From NCBI RefSeq assembly GCF_018350175.1, contig NC_058382.1, positions 38,378,001 to 38,442,000 on the forward strand: 64,000 nt of DNA, read 5' to 3'. The position numbers and the translations under genes are program-made. Positions 4,062 through 11,042 of this stretch are shown one piece after another. The notes beneath the pieces are model-generated. The model had not been told where the DNA came from. It saw only the letters and a list, made by a program, of their open reading frames with translations, and did not search any database. How positions within the stretch are numbered: position 1 is the stretch's first letter; each line of letters begins with the position of its first letter. The stretch is from Felis catus (Eukaryota).

Positions 4062-4480
4062 CTTAGCACTTAAAATTTAGCACCAAGGGGTGCCTGGGTA
4101 GCACAGTCAGTTAAGCATCCGACTCTTGATTTTGGCTCAGATCATTATCTCACAGCTTGTGGGTTCCAGCCCCGTGTTGGGCTCTGGGTTGACAGCTCAG
4201 AGCCTGGAGCCTGTTTCCAATTTTGTGTTTCCCTCTCTCTCTCTGTCCATCCCCTGCTCGCACTCTACCTCTCTCTGTCTCTCAAAAATGAATTAAAAAT
4301 GTCAAAAAAAAAATTTAGCACCTAGCAATATTACTAGGAAATCTTATTAAATAACAGATTTCCAGGCCTATCTCTGCAGATTTCTGACTCTGTAGGTTTT
4401 AACTGGAGCCTGAGAAGTTGGCATGAACAAGTACATAGGGCATGCTGGTTGATCTGGGAACTGCACTTTGAGACCACTGC
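4062..4480 (-). mobile_element. MER5A hAT-Charlie DNA transposon relic, split by a Can-SINE
   Basis: AACAGATTTCCAGGCC...TTTCTGACTCTGTAGG...CACTTTGAGACCACTG terminal; left end continues before the SINE. Confidence 0.7.
4087..4309 (+). mobile_element. Can-SINE
   Basis: GGGGTGCCTGGGTAGCACAGTC head, CT tract, A tail; TSD AAAATTTAGCACC at 4072-4084 and 4310-4322. Confidence 0.95.
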
Positions 4481-5299
4481 TCTGGACTCTACTGTTCCGA
4501 CTAGGATGAGTTTTCCCAGAAATGCTTTTTGACCCACCATATAACTAAGTCCCAGGTATGACTGCTCAAATGGTCTTGAGACATGCCTGGGTGGACATAA
4601 AGCCTACAACGACAATTGCAATTTTGCCAAACTTTGCTTTTGCTGTTCTCAACTAACCATCTGCCAAACCCGTTGCTCTGTGGAAAGTATTCAATTAAGC
4701 GAATACGTTTTGGGAAAAGTTATCTCTGAGCATTGAAAACATTTTGTCTTTACTGATGAGGTAACTTTTCTCTGTCCTTGAGACATTGTTGGAGTCATAT
4801 TATTCACAAGAAGGCTTACATTTGTAAGACAGACTCACAGGGGTCTGTCTAGTGGTGCCCATTAAGACACCAGGACATCCAGTGGAAAAAGAACTTGGGT
4901 AGAGGACTTCCTTCAAGAGGAGGCTACAGTTTTGCTACAGATATGAAGTTTACCACTGCCATGTGATCTCTGAAACAAATAAGCAGCTCCATCGTGAAGG
5001 GCTCAAGAAGCAATCCGGACTTTTGTGTTTGGTGGAAAGAGTTAGAAATGGAGATCCTGGAGTTATACTAAGATATACACCTACCTTACTTGGTTAAAAA
5101 TGAGGAGATACTATCTCCAAGCTTTGGAAAAACGAATCATGACTTTCTGCTATTGGCAGTGAATGACATATAACGTATACATGGACATTTTACATGATAA
5201 ATTTAGGGAGGTGATCCACACTTAATATTAAGTCCAGGTATGCCTGCACAACTACGTTTAAATTCTATCTCCACTACTCTATAGCACCATAACACTGAA

Positions 5300-9582: not shown

Positions 9583-9974
9583 AACAATCTTTGCTCATAA
9601 GCAAAAGCACAGCAATCAGTGATTTATTGGTGTTCATCAAATTTGCTATCTTATGGGGTATTATTGAGTTATTCAACCTCAACATCTAACAGTGTCCTTA
9701 GCAAATAATAGGATCTCAATCAATATTCGTTTAATGATTAAACAATGAATTTTCAAAAGCAGAAATAATATTTAACCTTAGTTTTACTCTCACTAGTAAA
9801 TTTCCAGTTAGTTTCCATTTACATATTGAGAGAACAATGCTAGTTGTGTGCCTATGAGTAAATCATTTTCTCTTCAACTTCCTCAATTTACTGAGACAAA
9901 TGGATGCAGTGGATAAATATGTGATTTATTTGAGAAATCTCTGCTGCAAAGTCAACTACAAATCACTGGGCTTT

Positions 9975-10323
9975 GGGGCACCTGGGTGGCTTCATCAGTT
10001 GGGCATACCACTCCTGATTTCAGATCAGGTCATGATCCCGGGGTCACGGGATCAAGCCCCACATCAGCCTCTGTGCTGAGTTTGGAGCCTGCCTAAGATT
10101 CTCTCTCTCTCTCTCTCTCTCTGACTCTCACTCTCACTCTCTCTCTCTCTCCCCCTCTGCTCCTCTCTCCCACTCATGCTCTCCCTCACTGTAAATTAAA
10201 TCTAAAAAAAAAAAAAGAAAGAACTAGTTGTACGATCCTCAAATTCTTCCCTCCACATCTCATGTTATTAGAAAAGAACAATATATGTGACTGCAAATGA
10301 GTAAACTTTAAACAAAAGAAAAA
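9975..10323 (+). mobile_element. Can-SINE (older type) with about 100-nt 3' extension inside its TSD
   Basis: Head at 9975, CT tract, A tail to about 10216, unique sequence, second A-rich tail; TSD ACAAATCACTGG(G/T)CTTT at 9958-9974 and 10324-10340. Confidence 0.9.
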
Positions 10324-10419
10324 ACAAATCACTGGTCTTTGTCTTTCCCTAAAAGTTTGAATTTTGAACAATAAAACCTATTTGGGACAACCATTCTTTC
10401 TTAAGAACTTGTAAATACA

Positions 10420-10641
10420 GGGGTCCCTGGGTGGCTCAGTCAGTCAAGTGTCCGACTTCGGCTCAGGTCATAATCTCACAGTTCATGGGTTTGAGCCCTG
10501 CATCCGGCTCTGTGCTGACAGCTCAGAGCCTGGAGCCTGCTTTGGATTCTGTGTCTCCCTCTCTCTCTGCTCCTCCCCCACTCACTCTTTGTCTCTCTCT
10601 CTCTCTCAAAAATAAATCAACATTAAAAAAATTGTTTTTAA
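10420..10641 (+). mobile_element. Can-SINE
   Basis: Perfect 17-bp TSD AAGAACTTGTAAATACA at 10403-10419 and 10642-10658. Confidence 0.97.
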
Positions 10642-10667
10642 AAGAACTTGTAAATACAATGTCATTG

Positions 10668-11042
10668 TCAAATACCATATGATCTGACTCATATGTGGAA
10701 TCTTAAGAAAAATAAAACATAAAGAAACAAACAGAAAGCAAAATCAGACCGATAAATACAGAGAACAAACGGTTGTCAGAGGGAAGGGGGTAGGGAGTGG
10801 GCAAGGTGGGCAAAGGGGAGTGAGAGATATAAGCTTCCAGGTATGGAATGAATAAGTCACAGGAGGAAAGGTACAGCATAGAGAATATAGTCAGCGATGC
10901 TGGAATAGCACTGTATGGCCATAGGTGGTGGCTTCACTTGTTCTGAGCTAGCAAAACATAGAGATGTTGAATCACTATGTTGTCCACCTGAAACTAATGT
11001 AACATCGTGTGCCAACTCTACTCAAAAACTTAAAAATAAACA
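10668..11042 (+). mobile_element. L1 3' end (carnivore L1_Carn-like), 5' truncated
   Basis: CAAATACCATATGATCTGACTCATATGTGGAATCT ... CACCTGAAACTAATGTAACATCGTGTGCCAACT plus A-rich tail. Confidence 0.9.

Follow-up and report, generated by a model that had tools for sequence, protein, structure and literature searches.

Can-SINE 3' transduction in the cat genome, demonstrated by two parent-daughter pairs and very probably responsible for a SINE copy with a 93-nt extension

In the 64,000-nt stretch of cat DNA analysed here (the window), one Can-SINE has a target-site duplication (TSD) that does not close behind the A-tail of the element, but beyond a further stretch of single-copy DNA and a second A-rich tail. 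This raises the question of whether SINE and extension arrived together, or whether the extension was added to an element already in place. We consider it very probable that both entered as a single insertion by SINE-driven 3' transduction; the process itself is demonstrated in the cat genome by two parent-daughter pairs.

The observation is real: Can-SINE, extension and two A-tails lie within one TSD (Table 1). The two TSD copies match at 16 of 17 positions; the SINE begins at 9975, directly behind the 5' copy, and the 3' copy starts 107 nt after the A13 run. A long TC tract, an AATAAA-like signal (degenerate, ATTAAA) and an A-tail mark the element as a Can-SINE, and its tRNA-related head and body match a high-copy family. 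Enclosed by the same TSD are non-element DNA and a terminal poly(A), the structure of a 3' transduction. The T+ type carries TCT3+ or T4+ before the A-tail; here TCT alone precedes A13, and this absence of a working terminator is a requirement for read-through in the window copy.

The distribution of T-runs is of particular interest. On the plus strand there is no TTTT from 9975 to 10361 (the first is at 10362), and the sole TTT of the extension forms its three last bases (10307-10309). A T4-free interior with a TTT end is the pattern expected of a piece ended by Pol III, the source of which would have T4 or more at that point. Among random 88-mers of similar AT content TTTT is absent in 43-45%, TTT stands at the end in 4-5%, and the first TTT falls at the end in 0.2%. 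In all these respects the sequence-only reading, which had described a 17-bp TSD with one mismatch displaced beyond the SINE tail, a tail without T-run, and a unique stretch without TTTT followed by a second A-rich tail, was accurate. It had missed a weak inner repeat (10209-10224 and 10310-10325, 14/16) and the resemblance of 10295-10328 to ordinary Can-SINE tails (about 88-91%). AGTAAA is a candidate poly(A) signal, with ATTAAA (10195) and AATATA (10280), the latter 24 nt upstream of the second tail, as alternatives. Rfam gave three matches, with E values of 1.4-4.4 and all far under the gathering score.

Table 1. Components of the window copy (9958-10340), and young daughter copies with the source loci traced for them.
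Feature	Position	Strand	Basis
5' TSD copy	9958..9974	+	repeat search, swapped-flank controls
Can-SINE head and body, 5' full-length; old type without feliform insertion	9975..10102	+	paralog comparison
Polypyrimidine (TC) tract	10099..10187	+	read from sequence
ATTAAA (10195), a degenerate poly(A) signal, followed by TCT (10201-10203), a rudimentary terminator	10193..10203	+	
First A-tail, A13; putative genomic tail of parent	10204..10216	+	
93-nt single-copy extension; putative parent TSD and 3' flank	10217..10309	+	
Second A-tail, decayed; putative remnant of non-templated poly(A)	10310..10323	+	
3' TSD copy	10324..10340	+	repeat search, swapped-flank controls
Daughter L243	G000:C17:200393086-200393161		
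Source of L243: L248	G000:C2:33573028-33573080		
Daughter L280	G000:C39:9458669-9458754		
Source of L280: L282	G000:C10:35053266-35053321		

A displaced TSD could be a product of chance or of faulty assembly. The log-odds score of the TSD is 26.8; when upstream flanks were swapped, only one of 1,120 controls scored at least 24 at a distance of more than 60 nt, which led us to reject chance. The stretch is present in 20 runs from 12 studies, all of one organism, among the runs listed, and in all four runs examined a single contig spans 10219-10400. Because the stretch recurs across runs and contigs cross both the extension and the right flank, an assembly error is excluded. No read joints bypassing the insert were seen in four runs; with the repeat 10093-10230 skipped and a raw-read depth of 0-3, these reads say little about an empty allele. 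The runs included no outgroup species; two from a second organism share 0.01 of words and carry no weight.

To place the window copy among its relatives we used a sample of 1.414 Mb containing 560 full-length Can-SINEs, 275 of them with a TSD score of at least 18. The TSD lies more than 60 nt beyond the TC tract in 21 of these 275: in 13 the tail contains another SINE or the end of one, five have long simple tails, two are apparent chance matches and one is the window copy. With 13 of 21 cases, TSDs are usually displaced because something inserted into the tail afterwards, a cause that therefore needed testing at this locus. A long unique extension followed by a second tail occurs in none of the 274 other TSD-bearing SINEs in the sample.

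SINE tails are insertion hot spots in their own right, a second full SINE being found in the tail region of 12 of the 275 TSD-bearing Can-SINEs. At one locus (L136, about 4380-4680; G000:C15 near 100034400) roughly 30 nt, probably the 5' end of U6 snRNA, sit in the SINE tail between repeated A/T runs. Short islands ending in TTT between two A-runs and inside the TSD are present at L184 (6245-6263, 17 nt) and in the tail of L011 (about 24 nt). A search for the source of the L184 island gave 15 matches against 13 for the control, none of them behind a SINE.

The window SINE is not young. Its closest paralog is 85% identical, the 40 copies scored out of 4044 candidates range from 82 to 90% (self excluded), and pairwise divergence for its type is 14%. 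Relative to the majority of the 29 nearest copies it differs at 14 of 131 sites (11 of 107 outside CpG columns). The feliform insertion is missing and box B carries an A; at this position A is tied to Caniformia and T is found in cats (PMC9599045). The same source mentions a feliform Can insertion, in agreement with the insertion-like motif in 347 of the 560 sampled SINEs. On account of the missing insertion and the box-B A, the window copy may predate the feliform-caniform split; it appears to be an old insertion, possibly from near that split, and dog may not serve as an empty-site outgroup. The motif is also present in the neighbouring SINE at 10420, an ordinary feliform-type Can-SINE (10420-10641 within 10403-10658) with a perfect 17-bp TSD. 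Beyond it, at about 10659-11040, lies sequence resembling what is presumably the 3' UTR and tail of an old carnivore L1.

DNA searches for a donor with 10217-10309, and a search with one translated frame, returned the self match only. A 22-nt pattern from the extension, with three mismatches allowed, matched 55 times, its reversed control 41 times; each of the 54 matches other than the locus itself was fetched and is unrelated, similarity extending in none. There is no local donor within 164 kb around the site, no paralog of 10219-10294 at 80% in contigs of four runs, and no extension in the 29 nearest SINE bodies, checked by eye. Because the sensitivity of the pattern is about 52-68% at 13-16% divergence, the search argues weakly against a donor and fairly well against a multi-copy subfamily. 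The sequence-only reading had expected that the extension might be found behind another SINE; within this limited sensitivity only the window locus was returned. It had also suggested that the window copy may have founded an extended subfamily, which we reject, these searches having yielded no second copy of the extension. Single-copy status likewise argues against a catalogued SINE consensus that contains it. No sign of function or progeny was found, and the window copy is a dead one-off.

On younger copies the mechanism could be put to the test. We searched the genome for a motif consisting of the tail of the youngest feline subfamily, a gap of 40-70 nt, and S-N-S-TTT-A10. The TTT-ended motif gave six matches, five with the TSD behind the second tail. 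A control motif ending in C/G gave 34 matches, of which 30 were fetched: the TSD was behind the second tail in two, 26 were ordinary, one had no TSD and in one the head was not located. The difference (5/6 against 2/30) is significant (Fisher p 3e-4), although in the background C/G endings outnumber TTT endings 18.7 times. Strand counts are skewed (0 and 6 for TTT, 13 and 21 for C/G), so the motif counts may be lower bounds. From the five cases, about 86,000 motif copies, a fraction of 0.20 for S-N-S before T4, and 32 of 61 copies keeping A10, we obtain a rate near 0.06% for young copies of the class searched, itself a rough lower bound.

TSD-enclosed extensions are present in two TTT cases outside the tracing, L239 (C1:16353689-16353785; seemingly the tail of another SINE, then 24 unique bases) and L244 (C21:1901876-1901962), and in L277 (C27:84389388-84389461), also outside it. 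At L264 (C16:91490012-91490100) the TSD of a young SINE and its following flank are repeated behind the A-run, an arrangement that resembles a tandem duplication.

Sources were searched for three of the five TTT cases and one of the two control cases, and each of the four extensions recurs just once elsewhere, as a copy on a different contig. For L243 this copy lies behind L248, a SINE of the same type with its own perfect 16-nt TSD. The L243 extension consists of the L248 TSD and flank up to the first TTTT, shortened to TTT; a new A-run follows, and then a TSD belonging to L243 itself. Between the two bodies 7 of 185 sites differ, and both carry a variant that is absent from 35 other motif loci and was seen in none of 72 survey copies (69 with another letter, three unscored). 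For L280 the source, L282, is again a SINE, and its TSD opens the L280 extension. The variant common to this pair is frequent (18/108). The source has no T-run at the point where L280 ends, its first T4 being at +218, and the L280 end had a different origin, perhaps trimming or cleavage.

The remaining two daughters, L240 and L242, have sources (L246 at C16:48382669 and L250 at C22:39772436) with no SINE, such that a parent SINE is present at two of four sources. These two sources start at T/A-rich, target-like sites and stop at T5 (L240) and TCT5 (L242), each the first T4 past the start. Parentless L1 transductions occur in dogs (PMC7980453, PMC13103737), and by analogy L240 and L242 may derive from polymorphic parents missing from the assembly. 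In three of the four traced cases the stop point is the first T4 or T5 of the source. Together these data demonstrate Can-SINE 3' transduction in the cat genome by two parent-daughter pairs, and show that in these young copies the element was copied together with the TSD and flank of its parent, as a unit to which a new A-run was added.

Target-primed insertion (TPRT) by L1 ORF2p is established. For the young copies we infer transcription by Pol III, non-templated polyadenylation, and ORF2p priming at the terminal poly(A). The same sequence of events can be proposed for the window copy. A parent with TCT only, the state seen today, would have allowed Pol III to read through A-tail, TSD and flank. 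The polymerase would have halted on meeting the first run of T4 or more, of which the TTT seen at the end of the extension would be the remnant. The RNA would then have been polyadenylated at the read-through end, much as polyadenylation at flank terminators is reported for mouse B2 RNA (PMC12101331). L1 ORF2p would have primed on this terminal poly(A), and not on the internal A13, inserting the whole RNA between copies of a 17-bp TSD. The read-through mechanism put forward from the sequence alone is thus supported by the parent-daughter pairs of younger SINEs and by the same marks in the window copy; for the window copy it is unproven, because the donor was not found and each step is drawn from anatomy and analogy. 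The analogues belong to a younger subfamily, and their extensions, of about 45-55 nt, are shorter than that of the window copy, which reaches about 106 nt past TCT.

The strongest competitor of transduction involves two events: an ordinary SINE inserted first, and L1 later placed an 85-nt polyadenylated RNA fragment (a class 1 TSIP, an orphan L1 transduction or an mRNA end) into its A-tail, creating an inner, A-rich TSD. SINE tails commonly receive later insertions, as the 13 of 21 displaced TSDs attest, and the distance from AATATA to the second tail is that of class 1 TSIPs (PMC5110952). The inner repeat could be the TSD of such an event, but it is at chance level when set against random tail-junction pairs, of which 488/1500, 23/190 and 65/190 score as well. 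The TTT end and the missing TTTT are left unexplained, and none of the four traced young look-alikes was shown to have arisen in this manner: two are SINE flanks, and two stop at T5 or TCT5. We regard two events as unlikely.

Still less likely is a template switch, in which ORF2p began on the end of an unrelated poly(A) RNA and jumped to the A-tail of the SINE RNA, generating one chimera. This would put both parts within one TSD, and chimeras that join L1 to small RNAs, to Alu or to parts of mRNAs are reported (PMC13174262). No source transcript was found in DNA, contig or one-frame translated searches, however; the T-run signature is not predicted, and the traced analogues have flank sources. 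A DNA patch, by which the tail and flank of another SINE were copied between the TC tract and the copy's own tail (10295-10323 being the original), draws on the likeness of 10295-10328 to Can-SINE tails and of 10187-10200 to 10288-10301, but both similarities are short, AT-rich and unscored, two switches are required, and no traced case is of this kind, making it extremely improbable.

It is likely that feliform Can-SINEs regularly transduce 3' flanks by Pol III read-through and polyadenylation, and, as the window copy would show, have done so since the time of an old carnivore subfamily. True source SINEs are hard to identify because copies are nearly identical; a transduced flank is a unique tag of its parent, and two parents could be named from four extensions searched. 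If the general claim holds, these flanks would barcode parents, and make active SINE sources nameable, genome-wide, even polymorphic sources that the assembly lacks. With tens of bases moved in about 0.06% of young copies of that class, the one covered by the motif search, the process is therefore a marker and a test of mechanism, and not a vehicle of exon shuffling.

How does this compare with known systems? Statements on published work here refer to the accessible parts of the sources cited. The 3' transduction of L1 and SVA is established (PMC4859970), with further sources including the parentless dog cases (PMC13141329, PMC13103737, PMC7980453, PMC13756887); the canine transductions in these last four are of L1 only, and L1 transductions alone appear in bioRxiv 10.1101/2022.02.16.480772. 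The feline copies share with L1 and SVA the two A-tracts, the source TSD inside the piece, the single outer TSD, and sources that are traceable or parentless. They differ in the carrier, a non-autonomous, tRNA-derived SINE, and in what fixes the end of the extension, which is a T-run acting on Pol III in place of the poly(A) site used with Pol II. In the literature searched, of which coverage was partial and the supplements of PMC9599045, PMC8466645 and PMC12101331 lay outside, no traced parent-daughter transduction of a tRNA-derived SINE was found, and the word 'transduction' is absent from the accessible text of PMC8466645.

The nearest published scheme concerns Can-SINEs themselves. Polyadenylation of Can RNA depends on AATAAA and the TC tract (Kosushkin 2022, PMC9599045), and the same source proposes capture of a terminator from the TSD in T+ retroposition, giving daughters with two rudimentary terminators from TSD T-runs. 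That scheme and our cases have in common a Pol III stop and polyadenylation, and daughters in which the terminator is shortened and the A-tail is new. The scheme was drawn up for dog Can_b2, and what is captured in it does not reach beyond the TSD; in the cat 45-93 nt of unique flank are involved and sources have been traced for young copies, although the supplements of that work may hold related cases. In mouse, B2 transcripts that pass a rudimentary terminator receive their poly(A) at terminators lying 28-97 bp further on in the flank, a maximum slightly exceeded by the 106 nt or so of the window copy, and T-only terminators stop mainly at T3-T4 (PMC12101331). The category C transcripts of that study are the type of RNA that the read-through model needs; they are described as RNA only, and the accessible text does not describe a retroposed product.

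For Alu, a genome-wide search (Halabian et al., bioRxiv 10.1101/2024.04.29.591526) covered 118,489 AluY in human and confirmed 3' transduction for none of them, and chimpanzee and rhesus gave no confirmed case either, earlier single reports cited there being an Alu-monomer case (Kojima) and AluSx-WaluSat. That study looked for a displaced TSD, a source of the same subfamily and a T4 after the piece, as was done here for the cat, and L243/L248 shows all of these, the 70-nt length filter excepted. The feline pairs provide genomic evidence of a difference between polyadenylating (T+) SINEs and Alu: once poly(A) has been added, the read-through transcript can be copied by L1 in full.
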